In this document: positions 9,423-51,167 of the stretch, piece by piece
Numbering within the stretch: position 1 is the first letter of the stretch
Layout of the letters: every line of letters starts with the position of its first letter
Assembly: GCA_963814115.1 (NCBI GenBank)
Contig: CAWFBS010000014.1
Location: 20,556-84,555, forward strand
DNA from: an uncultured Chloroflexia bacterium
GTDB lineage: Bacteria > Chloroflexota > Limnocylindria > Limnocylindrales > CSP1-4
Reading direction: 5' to 3'
DNA: 64,000 bases
Translations under genes and position numbers: made by a program
The notes under the pieces: model-generated
What the model was told of the DNA's origin: nothing
The model's input: the letters and a program-made list of their open reading frames with translations, nothing else
The model's database searches: none

Positions 9423-10529
9423 TCAGGATCCGGCTTCGCCGTCGTCGGCCAGCGAGGCAAGCCGCTCCGCCTGGTCGGTCGTGCTGAGCGCCTCCAGCAG
9501 CCGGTCCAGGTTGCCATCCAGGACGCCGGGCAGGTTCGACAGGTCCATCCCGATCCGGTGATCGGTCACCCGGTCCTGGGGATAGTTGTACGTCCGGATC
9601 TTGTCCGACCGGTCCCCTGCCCCGATCAGCGAGCGGCGCGTGGCGGAATCGGCCTCCCGCTGCCGGTTGCGCTCCTGGTCCAGGAGCCGAGCACGCAGGA
9701 TCGCCATCGCCTTGATCTTGTTCTTCAGCTGGCTGCGCTCGTCCTGGATCTCGACGACCAGGCCGCTCGGCAGGTGGGTGATCCGCACGGCCGAGTCGGT
9801 CGTGTTGACGCCCTGGCCGCCGGGGCCAGAGGAGCGCTTGACCTCGATCCGCAGGTCGCGCTCCTCGTCGATCGAAAGGTCGGCCTCCTCCGCCTCGGGC
9901 AGGACCACCACCGTCGCGGTGGACGTGTGGATGCGGCCGGAGGACTCCGTGGCCGGGATCCGCTGGACGCGGTGGACGCCACTCTCAAACTTGAGGCGGC
10001 TGAAGGCGCCCTCGCCGAAGATCTCCACCACGGCCTCCTTGACGCCACCGATCCCCGTCTCATGGAGGCTCATGACATCCGCCCGGAGCCGGTGCCGATC
10101 CGCGTAGCGCAGGTACATCCGGAGCAGGTCGCCGGCGAAGAGGGCCGCCTCGTCGCCACCTGCGCCGGCGCGGATCTCCAGGATGACGTTCCGGTCGTCG
10201 TTGGGGTCGCGGGGCAGCAGGTTGACCGTCAGTGCGTCGAGCTCGGCGGCCTCGGCAGCCTCCAGCCGGTCGACCTCCTCGCGGGCCATCGCCCGCAGCT
10301 CGTCGTCGTGCTCCGCATCGCGCATCTCGCGGGCGCCGGCCAGCTCGGCGCGCAGGGCCTCCAGGCGTTGGTATGACGAGACCACCGGCTCGAGGCGTGC
10401 GAGCTCGCGGCCAAGACGACGGAGCGCCTCCATGTCGGCGGCCACCTCCGGCGTCGAGAGCTCCGCCTGGACATGCTCGTACTGCGTGACCAGGTCGCGC
10501 AGCTTCCGGTCCAGGACGCCCTCGGCCAC
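9423..10529 (-). CDS. prfA: peptide chain release factor 1
   Basis: 368 aa with a GGQ motif ([23 protein letters not shown]) and RF1-type N-terminus. rpmE-prfA-prmC synteny. Confidence 0.9.
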
Positions 10530-10532
10530 CGC

Positions 10533-11696
10533 TCAGGCCTCCGCCGTCGGTCGCGCCTCGGGAGACAGGAGCATGGGTGTGCGCCCGATCTGACCCGAGC
10601 CGGCGGGCAGCTCCTCGCCGTCGGCGAGGAGCGCCTGCTCGATGCTGACGATCGCGACTTCGAGCATGGCGTCCGTGGGCTGCTTCGTGGTGATCTTCTG
10701 GACCCAGATCCCGGGCTCGAAGAGCCAGCGGATCGCGCGGCTGTCCCGGTGGCGCGCGCCGAAGCGCAGCAGCTCGTAGCTGATGCCCGCGATGACCGGG
10801 ATCAGCACGACCCGGCTGACGATCATGACCGGGATCGCCTGGCGGCCCACCAGGCTGAACACGACGATCGAGACGAGGATCACCACGACCAGGAACTCGG
10901 TGCCGCAACGGGGATGGGCGGTCGGGTACTTGCGGACTTCCTCGACCGTGAGGGGGTCGCCGGCCTCCAGGGCGTGGATCGTCATGTGCTCTGCGCCGTG
11001 GTACTGGAACGTCCGACGCACGTCCGATGTACGTCCGATCAGCAGCAGGTAGCCCAGGAAGATCGTCACCTGGATGACGCCCTCCACGACCCGCTCTACG
11101 ACGCTGCTCTGGTTCCCCGCGATCGCCTTGGCGAGCAGGAGCGGCGCGAAGAAGAACAGCCCGACACCGACCACCAGCGTGAGCCCGAGCATGAGCGCAA
11201 CGGCGCCCTTGCCGAGGTCAGCGCTGTCGACCACCGCCTGCCCTGGCGGGCGGCTCGCCGTTCGGTCCGCCTCGACCTCTTGGACTGTCGCTGCCGTCGG
11301 GGCGGCCAGCTCGGGCGCGGCGGCGTCTGCCGTCGAGGCGGCCAGCTCGGGCGCGGCGGCGTCTGCCGTCGAGGCGGCCAGCTCGGGCGCGGCGCCCGGA
11401 GCCGGTAGGGGCTCAAGCACTCGCGCAGGCTGGCGCGGATCGAGGTCTTCCACCGCCGCGACTCCCGCCGATCGAACGAGCCAGCGGGTCCCCACCACGA
11501 GCGTCTCGTAGAGGACCACGAGCCCGCGGACGAACGGGAGGCGCGCCAGGCGCGTGGCGCGGAAGCCCACCACCAGCTTCTCGTCCGCCCACACGATCCG
11601 TCCGTCCGGGTGGCGGAGCGCCACCGCGATCACGTCGCGTCCGCGCATGAGAACGCCCTCGATGAGCGCCTGACCTCCGTACGCGAAGCGAGCCAT
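10533..11696 (-). CDS. DUF1385 (YqhQ-like) membrane protein with in-frame repeat insertion
   Basis: DUF1385-like N-terminus (MARFAYGGQALIEGVLMRGRD…) and C-terminal TM core (…FQYHGAEHMTIHALEAG…RCGTEFLVVV…). It contains about 2.7 copies of the 12-aa unit AAPELAASTADA. Confidence 0.7.
   Translation of the reverse strand: MARFAYGGQALIEGVLMRGRDVIAVALRHPDGRIVWADEKLVVGFRATRLARLPFVRGLVVLYETLVVGTRWLVRSAGVAAVEDLDPRQPARVLEPLPAPGAAPELAASTADAAAPELAASTADAAAPELAAPTAATVQEVEADRTASRPPGQAVVDSADLGKGAVALMLGLTLVVGVGLFFFAPLLLAKAIAGNQSSVVERVVEGVIQVTIFLGYLLLIGRTSDVRRTFQYHGAEHMTIHALEAGDPLTVEEVRKYPTAHPRCGTEFLVVVILVSIVVFSLVGRQAIPVMIVSRVVLIPVIAGISYELLRFGARHRDSRAIRWLFEPGIWVQKITTKQPTDAMLEVAIVSIEQALLADGEELPAGSGQIGRTPMLLSPEARPTAEA
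11291..11397. repeat. 36-bp in-frame tandem repeat (about 2.7 copies) inside the DUF1385 gene
   Basis: ctgccgtcgaggcggccagctcgggcgcggcggcgt is repeated head-to-tail and encodes AAPELAASTADA repeats. Confidence 0.85.
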
Positions 11697-11766: not shown

Positions 11767-11982
11767 TCAGCGCCCCGTCGCGGCGCGCTCGAGGCGCTTC
11801 TGGAATCGCTCGACCTGGCCGGCGGTGTCCATGATCATCTGTTTGCCCGTGTAGAACGGGTGGCAGTTCCCACAGACGTCGACCCGAAGCTCGGCGCGGG
11901 TGGACCCGACGACGAACTCGGTCCCGCAGGTCGCGCAGTGCACCTTCGCGGCGTGGTACTTGGGGTGGATGTTCGGCTTCAT
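11767..11982 (-). CDS. rpmE: 50S ribosomal protein L31
   Basis: 71 aa MKPNIHPKYHAAKVHCATCGTEFVVGSTRAELRVDVCGNCHPFYTGKQ…, a zinc-ribbon type L31. Confidence 0.9.
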   Translation of the reverse strand: MKPNIHPKYHAAKVHCATCGTEFVVGSTRAELRVDVCGNCHPFYTGKQMIMDTAGQVERFQKRLERAATGR

Positions 11983-32200: not shown

Positions 32201-32314
32201 CAGGCGCGCACGGACGCCACCAAGGGCGCCAACCCCGCGGCCGCGAAGCTCGGCCGCAACGACCCCTGCTACTGCGGATCGGGGCTCAAGTTCAAGAAGT
32301 GTCACGGCCGCTGA
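29255..32314 (+). CDS. secA: preprotein translocase ATPase SecA
   Basis: 1019 aa with canonical SecA motifs (MKTGEGKT, DEVDNILIDEARTPLIISG) and a C-terminal zinc-binding CYCGSGLKFKKCHGR. TATACT -10 lies 9 nt upstream of the ATG. Confidence 0.95.
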   Translation: MVLGFLSRFVDSNDREIRRLQPLVDAANALEPELRDESDAQIRARMDEVRAELAELQEGFGPGQDELDEDDAARRRDLETERLKKETEKLQAALDDVLPEVFAAAREAMGRTLGMRHFDVQLMGGIVLHQGKIAEMKTGEGKTFVPTLAATLNGLTGRGVHVVTVNDYLARRDAQWMGPIFHFLGVSVGIVVGEEAYRFEPGYPTTDERLINLRPCSRREAYAADVTYGTNHHFGFDYLRDNLVTEMDQRVQRGHFFAIVDEVDNILIDEARTPLIISGQAEESADLYFQFARLVPRLRARPEGEEEGGDYFVDLKDRAVSPTEEGIAKIEQWLGVQNLYDDPRLTRYFDAALKAHALYKRDRDYIVRDGEIVIVDEFTGRQMPDRRWSEGIHQAMEAKEGLRVQRESVTLATVTFQNYFRLYAKLSGMTGTAMTEAEEFHKIYKLEVVSIPTNQPMIRDDEQDLVFRNEKGKYKALIDEIVEMREVGRPVLVGTVSVEKSEVLSELLERSGIKHEVLNAKFHEKEAPIVAQAGRTGAVTIATNMAGRGTDIMLGGNPAGLASEILHRRGLNPAEVDMATYADALAEAKAVCDADHDRVVAAGGLHIVGTERHDSRRIDNQLRGRAGRQGDPGSSRFYLSLEDDLMKRFASERVAGLMERLGLEDDVAIESRIVSKTIESAQTRVEGYNFDIRKRVVEFDDVINKQRETIYAERDKVLRNEDLTETVDAFLGEEVDALLATYCAAEIPDEWNMEGLAAALHAMGLEGPGTSEDELWEIGGLAALSGHLRDLADAKLEEKAAEVGAEDWQMIERLVLLRTIDSLWVEHLTELDDMRRGIGLRGYAQQDPLNEFKKEAFNLYDQLGELIRHQVATTIFRVSVVRQPAAPTPDEGQLAASLAAGAEAIRATGARAAGSPAGSGPQTAVAMRPGVSGSASASATFSGGGNSTTSARPPAPSPAVAAAARNLPAAPVLRSMQERLGDQARTDATKGANPAAAKLGRNDPCYCGSGLKFKKCHGR

Positions 32315-32961
32315 GCGATCGCGGCCGGAGATCACCGCTCCGCGAGATCGCCCTGGTGGGCCTCGCGGTCATCGCCGGAGGCGTGCTCGTCACCGGGTAC
32401 GCGACCATCCGGATCTGGCAGCGCGGCATCACCGACGAGACGCGGCCGGTCGATGCGATCGTGGTGCTTGGAGCGGCGCAGTACAACGGGACGCCGTCGC
32501 CGGTCTTCGCCAGCCGGCTCGATCACGCCGTGCACCTCTTCGCCGCAGGCGTTGCCCCGGTCCTGATCGTCACGGGCGGCAGTCGTGAGGGCGACCGAAC
32601 GACCGAGGCCGCGAGCGCGCGCGCCTATGCGGTGGCGCATGGCGTCCCGGATTCGGCCATCCTCGGCGAGGATCAGGGCCGCTCGACCCTCGAATCGCTC
32701 GAGGCGGTCGCGGGCATCCTGCGCCAGCATGGCCTGCGGAGCGCCATATTCGTGTCCGATCGCACGCACATGCTGCGCGTGATCCTCATGGCCAGGGACC
32801 TGGGGATCGAAGCGTACGGCTCACCGACGACCACGAGCCCGGCCGATGCGGAGCTCCAGGCTCGCGTCGAGGCGACCCTCCACGAGCTCGGGGCGCTGGC
32901 CTATTACGGCCTGCTGGGAGGCGCCATCGGCCCCGAGCTCGCAGCTCCCGCCTCGCCCTGA
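32299..32961 (+). CDS. DUF218 (YdcF/ElyC-like) domain protein
   Basis: …VDAIVVLGAAQYNGTPSPVFASRLDHAVHLFAAGVAPVLIVTGG… Start is uncertain. The track start overlaps the secA 3' end; an internal GTG near 32353 is possible. Confidence 0.6.
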   Translation: MSRPLSDRGRRSPLREIALVGLAVIAGGVLVTGYATIRIWQRGITDETRPVDAIVVLGAAQYNGTPSPVFASRLDHAVHLFAAGVAPVLIVTGGSREGDRTTEAASARAYAVAHGVPDSAILGEDQGRSTLESLEAVAGILRQHGLRSAIFVSDRTHMLRVILMARDLGIEAYGSPTTTSPADAELQARVEATLHELGALAYYGLLGGAIGPELAAPASP

Positions 32962-33080
32962 CGGGCACCGGTGACGACGGCGTCTCGTCCCCGGGCGCGA
33001 CGCATTGCTGTCCGGGGGCTGACCTGCGTCCATCGCCCGGCGGCCGTTGACGCTCCGTTCGCGGGCCGAAAAACTCCCTC

Positions 33081-33109
33081 TTGGCCGGTTCGGGTCGGCC
33101 CCGTATACT
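33081..33109 (+). promoter_or_regulatory. sigma70-like promoter candidate (TTGGCC-N17-TATACT) upstream of the Cys-rich ORF and prfB
   Basis: ctcTTGGCCggttcgggtcggccccgTATACTcac is seen directly. The TATACT hexamer recurs upstream of secA and dnaA. Confidence 0.4.
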
Positions 33110-33199
33110 CACACCATTGCCTCGGCCGACGCGTCCCAGCTCCCGTCCCGGCGGGAATCCGATCAGCCAGGCGTTGCGACTGCAGTGCATGAGGGAGCA

Positions 33200-33424
33200 G
33201 TGAAGCAGATCACGGATACCGCCTTCGTCGATCTGATCGCCTGCGAGCGAGACTGCCGGAATTGCAGTTACGCCGCAGCGCTGGACTGCGACGGCAACTG
33301 CGGCGTCTGCCCTCATAACGCGTACTGCGCCTGCGTGAACCCCGTCGTCGCCCGGAGCAAGACCGCCCTGCGGCTCATCGAGCTCCGGCCGATCCTCCTC
33401 CAGGACGTTCGAGGCCGGGCCTAG
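33200..33424 (+). CDS. small Cys-rich protein (8 Cys: CX3CX2C …CX3CX2C …CXC), unannotated
   Basis: GTG at 33200 lies 3 nt after GAGGGAG. 74 codons with high GC3. VKQITDTAFVDLIACERDCRNCSYAAALDCDGNCGVCPHNAYCACVNPVV… Its TAG stop is immediately followed by the prfB ATG. The longer track ORF from 33047 is rejected because the promoter lies inside it. Confidence 0.5.
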   Translation: MKQITDTAFVDLIACERDCRNCSYAAALDCDGNCGVCPHNAYCACVNPVVARSKTALRLIELRPILLQDVRGRA

Positions 33425-34547
33425 ATGGATCGGGCCGGCCTCCGCGAGCTTGCCGGACGGATCCACGCGACCTCGGGGCGTCTTTGACCTCCCGGCCAAG
33501 GAAGCACGCGTCGCGGAACTCGACGCACTGATCGGAGTCCCGGGATTCTGGGACGATCAGCGAGGAGCCCAGCGAATCCTTCGCGAGGCCGACGGTCTGC
33601 GCGGCGAGCTTTCGATCTGGCAGGACCTGGAATCCCGCGCGACGGGCCTCGACGAGCTGGCAGACCTCGCCGCCGAGGCCGAGGATGCGGAGATGCTCGC
33701 CGAGATCGATCGCGACGCGGAGGCGCTTCGGGTCTCGTTCGAGCGAGAGCGCACGGCGCTGCTCTTCTCGGGGGAGTACGACCAGCGCGGCGCGCTGGTC
33801 ACGATCAGTGCGGGTGCCGGCGGGACCGAGGCAACTGATTGGGCGGAGATGCTCCTCCGCATGTTCCTCCGCTGGGCCGAGCGGCACCACTTCTCGACCG
33901 AGGTCCTGGACCAGACCGAAGGCGAGCAGACCGGCCTCAAGAGCGTGACGTTCAGCGTCGACGGCCGCCGGGCGTACGGCTGGCTTCGCGCCGAGCGTGG
34001 CGTGCACCGGCTGGTCCGGATCAGCCCGTACGACTCCCAGAAGCGTCGCCAGACCACGTTCGCGCTCATCGAGGTGATGCCCGAAGTCGAGGATGAGGCC
34101 GAGGTGGAGCTCAACTGGGACGAGATCCGGGTCGAGATGTACCGCTCGTCCGGAGCCGGCGGGCAGCACGTGCAGAAGACCAACTCGGCGGTGCGCCTGA
34201 CGCACGTTCCGACGGGGATCGTGGTGACCTGCCAGAACGAGCGCTCGGCAACCCAGAATCGCGAGACCGCGGCCAAGGTCCTGGCGGCCCGCATCCTCGA
34301 ACGGCGACTGGAGGAGAAGGAGGTCGAGCTGCGCCTCCTCAGGGGCGAGCATGTCGAAGCCGGCTGGGGAAACCAGATCCGGAGCTACGTCCTTCACCCG
34401 TACCAGATGGTCAAGGATCATCGAACCGACGTGGAGACGTCGAACACGGCGGCGGTACTTGACGGGGACCTCGACGTCTTCATGGCGGCAGAGCTCGAGC
34501 GCGAGGCAACCGAGGCGCCGGTCAGCGGCACGATCGAGCCGGCGTGA
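33425..34547 (+). CDS. prfB: peptide chain release factor 2 (programmed +1 frameshift)
   Basis: Frame-0 ATG 33425 encodes MDRAGLRELAGRIHATSGRL, then an in-frame TGA at 33485. A +1 shift continues DLPAKEARVAELDALIGVPGFWDD… with SPF/GGQ motifs (SGAGGQHVQKTNSAVRLTHVPTG). The RF2 N-terminus is only recovered by the frameshift. Confidence 0.9.
33473..33488 (+). other. prfB +1 programmed frameshift site: internal SD GGGG, 3-nt spacer, CTT TGA C
   Basis: Sequence TCGGGGCGTCTTTGAC has the same architecture as the E. coli site AGGGGGTATCTTTGAC. Confidence 0.85.
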
Positions 34548-34563: not shown

Positions 34564-35562
34564 GTGACGACCGCGCCGGACGCCGAGCCGGTGGTTCGCA
34601 TTCGACCGGCACGCGTCGACGACCTGCCGGCCTGCGTTGGTGTCTGGCACGCCGGACTCAGCGAGTACGGGATGCGGGTCGGCCGGCCCGCCATGCCGCC
34701 GTCGTTCGGACCGCTGCTCGGGCTGCTCGGGCACCTCCTGGCAACGGACCCGCGGGGCTTCCTGGTGGCGGTCGCGGATGGCGCTGCAGACGACGACTCG
34801 CCGAGGGCCACCGACCGGGCCGGCTCAGCGGGCCAGGTCGTCGCCTTCGTCTCGGCGCTCCGGCGCGAGCACGTGTGGTTCCTGGCGATGCTCTTCGTGC
34901 AGCCGGGGCACCAGGAGCGCGGCCTGGGACGACGCCTCCTGTCCCGAGTGCTGACGGGTACGAAGCATGCCACCCACGCGACGTGCACGGACAGCGCCCA
35001 GCCAGTCTCCAATGCCCTGTACAGCCGCTTCGGCATCATGCCGCGGCTGCCGGTGCTTGAGCTGGTCGGGCGGCCACAGGGTGCCGTGCCCGGCCTGCCC
35101 GGCGGCATCCGTGCGGTTCCCTTCGAGCTCCTGCGCGCTGGACCGACCGACGGCCCGGGGCCGCGGCGCCTGGCCGCCGCGCTGGAACACCTGGATCGAA
35201 CCACGCTCGGGTACGCGCACCCGCAGGACCATGCCTACCTAGCCGCCCAGGGCCGCCTGGGCTACCTGTACGAAGCCGGCGACGGAAGCGTGGCCGGCTA
35301 CGGGTACGCGTCGGAGGTGGGCCGCCTGGGCCCGATCGCCGTCGACGATTCCGGGCTGTTGGGGCCGGTGACGGGCCACCTTCTCGGGTCGGTTCGCCCG
35401 GCCGGTGCCTTCTCGGCCTGGATCCCCGGATCGGCCAGCGGGGCCCTCGCGGCACTCCTCGAAGCCGGGCTGCGACTGGAGGACTTCCCGGCGCTCGTCT
35501 GCTGGGACCGGCCCTTCGCCGATTTCGAGCGCTACGTGCCGATCACGCTGGCTGTCCTGTAG
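34564..35562 (+). CDS. GNAT family N-acetyltransferase (two-lobed, ~330 aa)
   Basis: Acetyl-CoA-binding-like motif QERGLGRRLL. GTG at 34564 follows the prfB stop. The track's upstream extension overlaps prfB and is rejected. Confidence 0.6.
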   Translation: MTTAPDAEPVVRIRPARVDDLPACVGVWHAGLSEYGMRVGRPAMPPSFGPLLGLLGHLLATDPRGFLVAVADGAADDDSPRATDRAGSAGQVVAFVSALRREHVWFLAMLFVQPGHQERGLGRRLLSRVLTGTKHATHATCTDSAQPVSNALYSRFGIMPRLPVLELVGRPQGAVPGLPGGIRAVPFELLRAGPTDGPGPRRLAAALEHLDRTTLGYAHPQDHAYLAAQGRLGYLYEAGDGSVAGYGYASEVGRLGPIAVDDSGLLGPVTGHLLGSVRPAGAFSAWIPGSASGALAALLEAGLRLEDFPALVCWDRPFADFERYVPITLAVL

Positions 35563-49323: not shown

Positions 49324-49707
49324 CGGGTGTCGTGGTCCTCAACCGTCCGGCCCCAGGGGTTTCGGTCGTTTCGTCCCCAGAAGGCACGTAAACGCGCCGC
49401 ACGCACGGAGGCGCGGGGCGCGTCAACGCCGGGCGATTATAGGAAGGTGCCATTCGGGGTGTCAAACGACGACGCGGCCGGGGCGCACCGAAGCCGACCC
49501 GGCCCCGCTCTGGCGCGACCCGGCCAGCGACCACTCATATACTCCCTGGGGGTATGTGCTTTTGGGTGCCGGATTGCCTTGCGGGGCCGGTCCGGGCGGT
49601 GCTACGATGCGTCGGCCCACGGTCGCCGGGACGCCTGCGGGCAACCCCGGTGGAACCCCGGGGCCAGCCCAAGGAGCGCTCGCCCAGCCTGCTGGGGGCG
49701 TCTCCAT

Positions 49708-49744
49708 TTGTCGATTGTGCTTGTCCGTGCGCGGTTTGTCCTGC
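49708..49744 (+). promoter_or_regulatory. cluster of three degenerate DnaA-box-like 9-mers upstream of dnaA (TTGTCGATT, TTGTCCGTG, TTGTCCTGC)
   Basis: Compared to the actinobacterial consensus TTGTCCACA they carry 3, 2 and 3 mismatches respectively. A TATACT -10-like hexamer lies at 49535-49540. Confidence 0.35.
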
Positions 49745-49805
49745 CCGGAACCAGCCGCTGAGTATCTCCTCCGGGCCGAGCGCCCGGGCCAAGCAGGTCC
49801 GTCCG

Positions 49806-51167
49806 TTGGATACACGACACATCTGGCGCGCGGCCCTCGGAGAGCTCCAGGTCGCCCTCTCGCCGGCCAACTTCGAGACGTGGCTTCGGCATACGTCGCT
49901 GGTCGAGGTGGATGACACCCGGTTCCGGATCGCCGTTCCGAACGGGTTCGCAAAGGACTGGCTGGAGACCCGCTATCGCTCCCTGATCTCGCAGACGCTC
50001 GCCCGGATCGTGGGCTACAGCGTCGCGGTGGAGTTCATGGTGCGGCCAGACGCCGGCCTCGCCGAGCCGGGCACGGAAGGGGTCGCTGCGCCGCCGCCGG
50101 ACGTCCGGGTGGAGCCGACCAGGGTCGGCGGCGATGGCTCGTCGGCCAACGTCAACCCCCGCTACACCTTCTCGAACTTCATCGTCGGGTCGGCAAACCG
50201 GCTGGCCCACGCGGCCGCGCTCTCGGTAGCGGAGCGGCCGGGCCACGCCTACAACCCGCTCTTCCTGTACGGCGGCGTAGGCCTGGGCAAGACCCACCTG
50301 ATGCACGCGATCGGCAACGCGGTCGTGGCCCGCTTCCCGCGCAAACGCGTGGTCTACGCGACCAGCGAGAAGTTCACCAACGAGTTCATCACGAGCATCC
50401 AGCAGGGCCGAATCGACGACTTCCGGTCGCGCTACCGGCGAATCGACCTGCTCCTGATCGACGACATCCAGTTCATCGCCGACAAGGAGCGGACCCAGGA
50501 GGAGTTCTTCCACACGTTCAACGCCATCCACGAAGACGGCAAGCAGATCGTCCTCTCGTCGGATCGCCCGCCGAAGCAGATCGTCACGCTCGAGGAGCGG
50601 CTTCGGAGCCGGTTCGAGTGGGGCCTGATCGCGGACCTCACGGCGCCCGACCTGGAGACACGGATCGCCATCCTCCGGGCCAAGGCGGAGGATTCGGCCG
50701 TCCCGATCGGCTCGGATGTCATCGAGTTCATCGCGCGCAAAGTCGTCAGCAACATACGCGAGCTCGAGGGCGCGCTCAACCGGGTGGTGGCATACGCGAG
50801 CATGGGCGCCATGCCGATCACGATCGAGCTCGCCCAGGCGGTCCTCTCCAACGTCCTGTACAACCCCAAGAAGCGCCAGGTCACCACCGAGAAGATCGCC
50901 CGGGCGGTCGCCGACTATTACGGCGTCGGCCTCGAGGCCCTCCGCGGCCAGAAGCGCGACAAGGCGATCGTCACGCCCCGCCAGATCGCGATGTTCCTGA
51001 TGCGCGAGGAAACGGACGTCTCCCTGCTGCGCATCGGCGCAGAGCTGGGGGGTCGGGACCACTCGACCGTTCTCCACGCCTACGACAAGATCAACCGCGA
51101 GGCGGCCCTCAACGACGAGATGCGCAGGGATATCGCCGCTGTCCGCGAGATGATCTACGCGGACTGA
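49806..51167 (+). CDS. dnaA: chromosomal replication initiator protein DnaA
   Basis: Domain I (…IWRAALGELQVALSPANFETWL…), AAA+ Walker A GGVGLGKTHL, and the domain IV HTH (…RQIAMFLMREETDVSLLRIGAELGGRDHSTVLHA…). Start is uncertain (TTG 49806). The upstream portion of the track ORF from 49554 is likely non-coding. Confidence 0.9.
   Translation: MDTRHIWRAALGELQVALSPANFETWLRHTSLVEVDDTRFRIAVPNGFAKDWLETRYRSLISQTLARIVGYSVAVEFMVRPDAGLAEPGTEGVAAPPPDVRVEPTRVGGDGSSANVNPRYTFSNFIVGSANRLAHAAALSVAERPGHAYNPLFLYGGVGLGKTHLMHAIGNAVVARFPRKRVVYATSEKFTNEFITSIQQGRIDDFRSRYRRIDLLLIDDIQFIADKERTQEEFFHTFNAIHEDGKQIVLSSDRPPKQIVTLEERLRSRFEWGLIADLTAPDLETRIAILRAKAEDSAVPIGSDVIEFIARKVVSNIRELEGALNRVVAYASMGAMPITIELAQAVLSNVLYNPKKRQVTTEKIARAVADYYGVGLEALRGQKRDKAIVTPRQIAMFLMREETDVSLLRIGAELGGRDHSTVLHAYDKINREAALNDEMRRDIAAVREMIYAD

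Follow-up and report, generated by a model that had tools for sequence, protein, structure and literature searches.

A conserved eight-cysteine small protein gene and frameshifted prfB form a predicted, very probably translationally coupled operon in Limnocylindria

We examined a 64-kb stretch of DNA (hereafter the window, to which all positions refer; 70.5% GC overall) from contig CAWFBS010000014.1 of an uncultured Chloroflexota bacterium, in which a small open reading frame (ORF) lies directly before prfB, the gene for release factor 2 (RF2). The small ORF (33200-33424, + strand) starts with GTG, runs for 74 codons to a TAG stop (33422-33424) and encodes a protein with eight cysteines, MKQITDTAFVDLIACERDCRNCSYAAALDCDGNCGVCPHNAYCACVNPVVARSKTALRLIELRPILLQDVRGRA; its GC content at the three codon positions is coding-like and it has homologues. 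Upstream lie a Shine-Dalgarno (SD) sequence, GAGGGAG (33191-33197, +), and a putative sigma-70-type promoter (33081-33109, +) composed of the -35 element TTGGCC (33081-33086), a 17-nucleotide (nt) spacer and the -10 element TATACT (33104-33109). The small-ORF stop abuts the prfB start in the junction TAG-ATG (33422-33427, +), and a weak SD-like GAGG (33411-33414, +) sits within the last small-ORF codons, 10 nt before the prfB ATG. Following this ATG (33425) is a frame-0 leader of 20 codons, MDRAGLRELAGRIHATSGRL, which extends to the +1 frameshift site CTT TGA C (33482-33488; leader and site together 33425-33488, +). The RF2 body then occupies the +1 frame (33486-34547, +) up to a TGA stop, as assigned from the ORF list and from the PCRF and RF-1 domains of orthologous gene calls. 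An earlier reading of these letters, made without database searches (the sequence-only reading), had placed the ORF, its SD, the cysteine pattern, the promoter and the prfB junction at these very positions, and each was found there.

The GC contents of the small ORF at the first, second and third codon positions (GC1/GC2/GC3) are 0.65/0.49/0.87, compared with 0.73/0.44/0.87 for prfB and 0.71/0.43/0.92 for secA. Extending the frame 5' to TTG 33047 adds a segment whose GC3 of 0.67 is non-coding-like and which includes the promoter, so GTG 33200 is taken as the start. A word-indexed search returned 432 homologues, and an exhaustive search grouped homologues into 59 clusters at 50% identity. The small protein is found in no fewer than 384 species-representative genomes, nearly all of them labelled Candidatus Limnocylindrales/Limnocylindria or Chloroflexota. 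For comparison we fetched 80 related loci from other species-level genomes (L001-L080; the main clade), and further considered divergent clades outside this set (L081, L082, L083, L085, L086, L094 and L098) as well as out-group prfB loci from metagenomes (L096-L166). Across the 80 main-clade loci, the ORF is 74 codons long in 77, begins with GTG in 63 and TTG in 16, never with ATG, and is preceded by an SD of the GAGGGAG/GGAGGGAG type with a median duplex energy of -8.5 kcal/mol (69% at or below -8).

Comparison of 77 gap-free, species-level orthologues gave a proportion of nonsynonymous differences (pN) of 0.063 and of synonymous differences (pS) of 0.459, a ratio of 0.14, with a median ratio of nonsynonymous to synonymous substitution rates (dN/dS) of ~0.09. 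All eight cysteines are invariant in these orthologues, and ~50 further positions show at least 97% conservation although up to 5-6 synonymous codons encode them. Identity to the window copy is 82-97% for the small protein, 69-95% for RF2 (tblastn) and 51-80% for the adjacent DUF218 protein of the same loci; thus, the small protein is better conserved than RF2. The sequence-only reading had taken the ORF for a real coding gene, a view that an interrupted frame in orthologous loci would have overturned. The frame proved intact there amid plentiful synonymous change. Taken together with the GC3 and pN/pS values, these comparisons identify GTG 33200-TAG 33424 as a genuine gene under strong purifying selection.

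Relatives of the small protein are usually annotated as 'hypothetical protein', often with wrongly extended N-termini. Gene calls of 105-130 amino acids (aa) ('MLRTHAAS...'; P0005-P0035 and similar; 33047-33199 in the window) run through promoter and leader, and the upstream extensions of such calls are unconserved with non-coding GC3, pointing to mis-called starts. In other public calls the small ORF is merged with the leader of prfB, or the call continues into RF2 sequence (P0113, P0166, P0198, P0185 and P0164). We considered P0113 (L084 3190-3235) as a natural fusion and rejected it: its CTAGTG junction is intact and out of frame, and the likeliest cause of the call is a 1-nt indel in the long-read assembly. 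P0113 was left out as evidence, as were P0198, which has an internal deletion in the cysteine core, and P0166, which comes from a contig of at most 726 bases.

The promoter is the sole promoter-like match in 32700-33700, with 0.0 expected from shuffled sequences. The pattern TTGGCN-N17-TA[T/C]ACT recurs in 79/80 loci, 76-149 nt before the small-ORF start and within variable surrounding sequence, and is also present in the divergent locus L086; such conservation is a phylogenetic footprint. The claim of the sequence-only reading that the ORF has its own sigma70-like promoter and a strong SD was thereby borne out. With transcription predicted to start ~6-7 nt past the -10 element, the 5' untranslated leader would span 33116-33199 (+) and contain the hexamer CCCAGC (33134-33139) as well as the SD. 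This leader has no Rfam match and folds no better than shuffled sequences (window z = +1.2), and a consensus RNA structure was absent across 79 leaders (median z +0.54). The motif CCCAG(C) occurs in 56/79 leaders compared with ~18 expected (shuffle maximum 28), mostly 20-29 or 40-60 nt upstream of the small-ORF start and outside any detectable conserved structure.

Stop and start are held close together at the junction with prfB. Measured from the first base of the small-ORF stop, the prfB start lies at +3 (abutting) in 42 of 79 junctions, at +2 (a 1-nt overlap, TA-GTG or TG-ATG) in 34 and at +4 or +5 in 3, so that 76/79 fall at +2 or +3. The prfB start codon in the 79 loci is GTG in 63 (80%), ATG in 15 and TTG in 1, and the SD pairing of prfB has a median of -5.8 kcal/mol and never reaches -8, the background for coding sequence being -3.0. 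In other clades the two genes overlap by 14 nt (L094, L098) or 29 nt (L085), or are separated by 6-8 nt (L081, L083). In the L094/L098 sub-clade the prfB start is a TTG located 11 nt before the TAA stop of the small ORF. In-frame read-through or fusion into the prfB leader was rejected because the frame relation is unconserved, the two ORFs sharing a frame in the window but in only about half of the loci (+3 in 42, +2 in 34).

The combination of a strong small-ORF SD, a weak prfB SD, a non-ATG prfB start and a tight junction indicates, from the anatomy of the locus, that the small ORF and prfB are very probably translationally coupled. Since the prfB SD is weak and poorly spaced, and the start is GTG in most relatives, prfB translation would be driven largely by handed-over ribosomes. 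Coupled expression with prfB, which the sequence-only reading had proposed, is therefore supported as very probable (junction 76/79; SD of -5.8 kcal/mol for prfB vs -8.5 for the small ORF). This arrangement resembles that of known translationally coupled bicistronic operons, in which stop and start abut or overlap and a strong upstream SD is paired with a weak downstream SD and non-ATG start. It differs in that the downstream gene is an autoregulated, frameshifted prfB and the upstream cistron encodes an orphan eight-cysteine protein, the coupling here being predicted from sequence.

The prfB gene itself has the hallmarks of autoregulation by a +1 programmed frameshift, with CTT TGA C, an internal SD-like GGGG (33475-33478) placed 3 nt upstream of the frameshift site, and an RF2 body read in the +1 frame. 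Its leader is exactly 20 codons in 79/79 loci and 22 codons in sub-clades. Thus, the CUU UGA C and SD-like elements of the classical prfB device are present and conserved, while an extra upstream layer distinguishes this locus from that device, namely a coupled small ORF that in most loci stops at UAG, the codon specific to RF1. Out-group prfB genes typically have an ATG start and a 22-codon leader without a coupled cysteine-rich ORF. The weak prfB start codon (mostly GTG or TTG; usually ATG in the out-group) coincides with the gain of the upstream ORF.

Linkage between the small gene and prfB is complete among the main-clade loci that have downstream DNA: CTTTGA lies 59-62 nt past the small-ORF stop in 78/78, and in 75/78 a tblastn match to the RF2 body is located no more than 200 nt from this stop. 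The 5' neighbour is usually DUF218 (61/75). Divergent members, at ~40-55% identity, are likewise located directly upstream of a frameshifted prfB. Their neighbourhoods feature two lgt paralogues (L081, L082), an epimerase (L083), an inverted secA (L086), or endonuclease V and purA in a 52%-GC organism (L085). The pair is thus kept in every locus examined, in at least 5 different neighbourhoods and down to ~40% identity. That the small gene is always upstream of prfB in related genomes, the check proposed along with the sequence-only reading, was confirmed both in the 78/78 main-clade loci and in all divergent members. A reciprocal search of metagenome contigs starting from RF2 found the small gene upstream in 7/7 loci having RF2 at 60% identity or above and sufficient upstream sequence, and in 0 of ~60 loci in which RF2 was at most 57% identical. 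The family is confined to Candidatus Limnocylindria (Chloroflexota) and one low-GC relative. Small gene and prfB form a clade-defining, rearrangement-resistant unit, and the region is, on the strength of its promoter, junction and linkage, a predicted two-gene operon in which the small gene and then prfB are co-transcribed.

All eight cysteines fall within 31 residues, in the layout C15-x3-C19-x2-C22, C30-x3-C34-x2-C37 and C43-x-C45, accompanied by a single histidine (His39). The family-wide signature is I-x-C-E-x-(D/N)-C-x-x-C-(S/K)-Y-x-A-x-L-x-C-D-G-x-C-x-x-C-x(5)-C-P-C, in which the eight cysteines are invariant in all clades; conservation of this core reaches clades of unrelated nucleotide composition. 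His39 is invariant in the main clade and replaced by arginine in other clades, making it an unlikely metal ligand. In the main clade the protein carries almost no net charge (9 K/R vs 8 D/E); it has neither a signal peptide nor a hydrophobic segment. The eight invariant cysteines probably bind metal, as two Zn(Cys)4 sites or as one or more iron-sulfur clusters. The sequence-only reading had suggested that the product could be a zinc- or redox-sensing protein tied to the termination factor; metal binding is predicted from the invariant cysteines, and neither structure nor homology favours a particular cofactor. One clade carries a basic RPRKR C-terminal tail. In the L094/L098 sub-clade (P0144, P0199, P0201) the N-terminal (M/V)KQLT is kept and an insertion of ~26 aa (…VTRFRDPxLPYEDLI…) precedes the cysteine core, bringing the protein to ~100 aa.

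Searches of Pfam and NCBIfam returned no match for the window protein and none of relevance for 15 diverse members at E up to 10, a PDB search with the family profile gave 0 matches at E up to 10, and a profile search for remote homologues had close relatives alone among the matches listed. A literature search returned no account of a small ORF preceding prfB or of release factors in Limnocylindria. By these searches the protein is the founding member of an orphan eight-cysteine small-protein family outside known families. Two likenesses, one to CDGSH proteins ('C-D-G-x-C') and one to ZAS proteins (CX3CX2C), were set aside because Pfam supported them in none of the 15 members. Trm112 is a small zinc protein that partners Mtq2, the methyltransferase of the release factor eRF1, in eukaryotes and archaea, and we compared the family with Trm112-like references (PDB 2hf1, 2js4, 2pk7, 2jr6 and 2kpi). 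Similar size and a by-eye likeness, in which 'DLIACxxxC' and 'RPILLQD' seemed to mirror the two UPF0434 halves, proved superficial, and a relationship to Trm112/UPF0434 (YcaR) was rejected: profile-profile alignment with hhalign gave a probability of 0.5% over 1 aligned column, and the C-terminal motif is missing in other clades. The sequence-only reading was right to set the protein apart from standard ferredoxins. Bacterial 2x[4Fe-4S] ferredoxins likewise carry eight cysteines in a short protein and a Cys-Pro (here C37-P38), but their motif is CX2CX2CX3CP rather than CX3CX2C twice plus CXC, and the 15 members had no Fer4 match at E up to 10.

Overall, the locus is likely best explained as a promoter-driven two-gene operon encoding a metal-binding eight-cysteine protein that acts with RF2 or in termination, with the first cistron also serving to deliver ribosomes to prfB. 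We hold the genetic architecture with high confidence and the function of the protein with low confidence. According to this model, the promoter at 33081-33109 would produce an mRNA with an unstructured leader of ~85 nt; ribosomes would load at GAGGGAG and the GTG, synthesise a 74-residue cytoplasmic protein and terminate at a UAG contiguous with the start codon of prfB. Translation of prfB would then be carried out mostly by ribosomes passed on from the small ORF through termination-reinitiation. RF2 output would equal the product of small-ORF translation, re-initiation and the RF2-sensitive +1 frameshift at CUU UGA C. That the small protein shares a message with RF2, exceeds it in conservation and is never separated from it argues, by association, for a role with RF2 or in termination as the most probable one.

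Several observations count against this interpretation. The C-terminal third of the protein differs among clades, leaving the cysteine core as the only family-wide part. AlphaFold2 lent the predicted metal site no structural backing, as two runs (29- and 31-sequence alignments spanning all clades) reached a mean predicted local distance difference test score of only 47.6 and 46.9, too low for a fold to be assigned. Translation, metal binding and RF2 interaction are all predictions, and operon neighbours need not be functionally related. Finally, prfB retains the weak SD-like GAGG and may therefore initiate independently.

The strongest competitor is that the protein is a small metalloprotein (a mini-ferredoxin, a zinc or copper buffer, or a thiol-redox protein) unrelated to RF2 that rides on a strongly expressed housekeeping operon. 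The tie of the protein to RF2 is one of gene position; the neighbourhood is a mixed housekeeping one (gyrBA, secA, DUF218, GNAT, ftsEX, smpB, dnaA), and the C-terminal third is unconserved between clades, all of which would suit a passenger. A passenger would not be expected, however, to stay with prfB at a tight or overlapping junction through at least 5 rearrangements, down to ~40% identity and in a 52%-GC organism, nor to match the distribution of one RF2 clade exactly while being better conserved than RF2, and we consider this explanation unlikely, though it deserves to be kept in mind. Much less credible is that the ORF serves as a regulatory upstream ORF or leader peptide, in which the act of translation controls prfB and the peptide is functionless. 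Its location directly before prfB, the overlapping junction and the weak prfB SD would all fit such a role. Leader peptides vary freely except at a few codons, whereas here dN/dS is ~0.09 over 74 codons, the eight cysteines are invariant, ~50 positions are at least 97% conserved amid synonymous variation and the cysteine core is kept in clades of unrelated nucleotide composition; the pattern expected of a leader peptide was not found, and we give the idea very little weight. Weaker still is the proposal that the ORF arose by chance in 70%-GC DNA or belongs to a conserved non-coding prfB leader. Long spurious ORFs are indeed frequent in this DNA, such as a 237-aa ORF on the opposite strand, but codon-position GC, amino-acid conservation with synonymous turnover, fixed length and the conserved SD and start already refute a chance ORF, and no RNA family or structure was detected that would speak for a non-coding leader; the probability left to either is practically nil.

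Two further explanations draw on known families of small proteins. Rescue factors known to depend on RF2 are short proteins (~55-72 aa), each limited to its lineage and without homology to the others. A factor of the ArfA/BrfA type that recruits RF2 to stalled non-stop ribosomes would accord with a small, lineage-specific protein encoded together with prfB and, in one clade, bearing the basic RPRKR tail. ArfA, BrfA and ArfT are alike small and lineage-restricted without cross-family homology, their tie to RF2 being functional. The present protein differs from them in being cysteine-rich rather than basic, near neutral in the main clade, and conserved in its cysteine cluster instead of a basic tail. 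In addition, arfA and brfA are typically regulated via non-stop mRNA, unlike the small ORF, whose proper stop codon is conserved in 80/80 loci, and smpB is present in the window; such a role is very improbable. The sequence-only reading had further likened the cysteine spacing to that of SCIFF/ranthipeptide-like precursors, that is, of ribosomally synthesised and post-translationally modified peptides, with a radical-SAM maturase encoded elsewhere. SCIFF and ranthipeptide precursors are also small and cysteine-rich, but the eight cysteines here are central and do not form a C-terminal core; all 74 residues are conserved with no leader/core division, no NCBIfam or Pfam precursor model matched the 15 members at E up to 10, and the gene is tied to prfB and not to a maturase or transporter. 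The same reading was correct that no maturase gene is nearby, the neighbours being secA, DUF218, prfB, GNAT and ftsEX; the 64-kb window contains no radical-SAM/SPASM gene, and its sole CxxxCxxC coding-like ORF (at least 70 codons) is DnaA. The precursor interpretation was accordingly not sustained, and its chances appear close to negligible.

The small-ORF stop codon is strongly biased, being TAG in 74 of the 80 loci, TGA in 4 and TAA in 2, as compared to 76% TGA, 22% TAG and 2% TAA for long ORFs in the same loci, and to TGA 40, TAG 27 and TAA 2 for the adjacent DUF218 genes. Among abutting junctions, which could accommodate any of the three stops, 40/42 have TAG. UAG is the sole stop codon unread by RF2; it is read by RF1. 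Since UAG is read by RF1 alone, the clearing of the prfB start would be independent of RF2, the factor whose shortage prfB must correct. A UGA overlapping the prfB start would stall the ribosome and block initiation when RF2 is scarce, so the use of UAG makes functional sense. The presence of prfA in the window means that RF1 should be available for reading the UAG of the small ORF. Both class-I release factors are encoded in the window, prfA ~22 kb upstream of prfB on the opposite strand, and the small companion gene is found at prfB only.

Three findings temper this idea. By parsimony on an RF2-based tree, the small-ORF stop changes 4 times, as do the RF2 and SecA stops, compared with 12 times for DUF218; with 4 changes only, the 74 TAGs mostly represent one retained ancestral state. 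In the TA-GTG class the TAG is locked by the G common to stop and start, and other clades end the small ORF in TGA, TAA or TAG. The parsimony control lowered stop-codon selection from an apparent finding to a hypothesis, and we regard selection for RF2-independent termination at the small-ORF stop as a tentative and rather doubtful proposition. An independent hint in its favour comes from the out-group, in which ordinary genes that end just before a prfB start use TGA in 2/20 cases, TAG in 8 and TAA in 10, vs 49% TGA for other long ORFs and 33% for the stop of prfB itself in those loci; these 20 genes represent ~12 independent gene families, giving p ~0.02-0.19. Genes that end beside a prfB start may in general avoid stops that depend on RF2.

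The most far-reaching possibility is that the eight-cysteine protein is a Limnocylindria-specific metal- or redox-sensing partner of RF2 and that the UAG-terminated cistron adds a second, RF1-gated layer of control on prfB over and above the classical RF2-sensed frameshift. We consider this distinctly improbable; if true, it would tie the supply of RF2 to RF1 activity and to the metal or redox state of the cell. The gene prfB is a textbook case of translational autoregulation that has been studied almost wholly via its frameshift site, and here a whole class of environmentally abundant, uncultured soil and freshwater bacteria has a second gene, itself highly conserved, placed right at the start codon of prfB. 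A protein that worked with RF2 would add a new accessory factor to bacterial translation termination, and one from an uncultured lineage. Should the stop-codon logic hold, it would provide a simple, general design rule, namely that no RF2-dependent UGA is used where termination must clear the prfB start, with relevance to thousands of genomes. Even in the most ordinary case, these loci would define a new orphan family of small cysteine-rich proteins that gene callers at present label 'hypothetical' and frequently start at the wrong codon.

The window covers a housekeeping region near the origin, with the gene order rpmE, DUF1385, prfA, followed by gyrB, gyrA, secA, DUF218, the small gene, prfB, GNAT, ftsE/ftsX, smpB and dnaA. 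The 5' neighbour of the small ORF is a DUF218/ElyC-like gene (32299-32961; Pfam PF02698). On the - strand lie prfA (9426-10529; RF1, with PCRF and RF-1 domains), the DUF1385 gene (10536-11696) and an ORF (11767-11982) whose N-terminus resembles ribosomal protein L31 (rpmE), by appearance only. The DnaA gene (49554-51167, +) has an N-terminal extension bearing the CxxxCxxC, and its called start may be too far upstream. After prfB comes a GNAT-domain acetyltransferase of 332 aa (34564-35562, +), and an Acetyltransf_1 gene call is also found 3' of prfB in L086.

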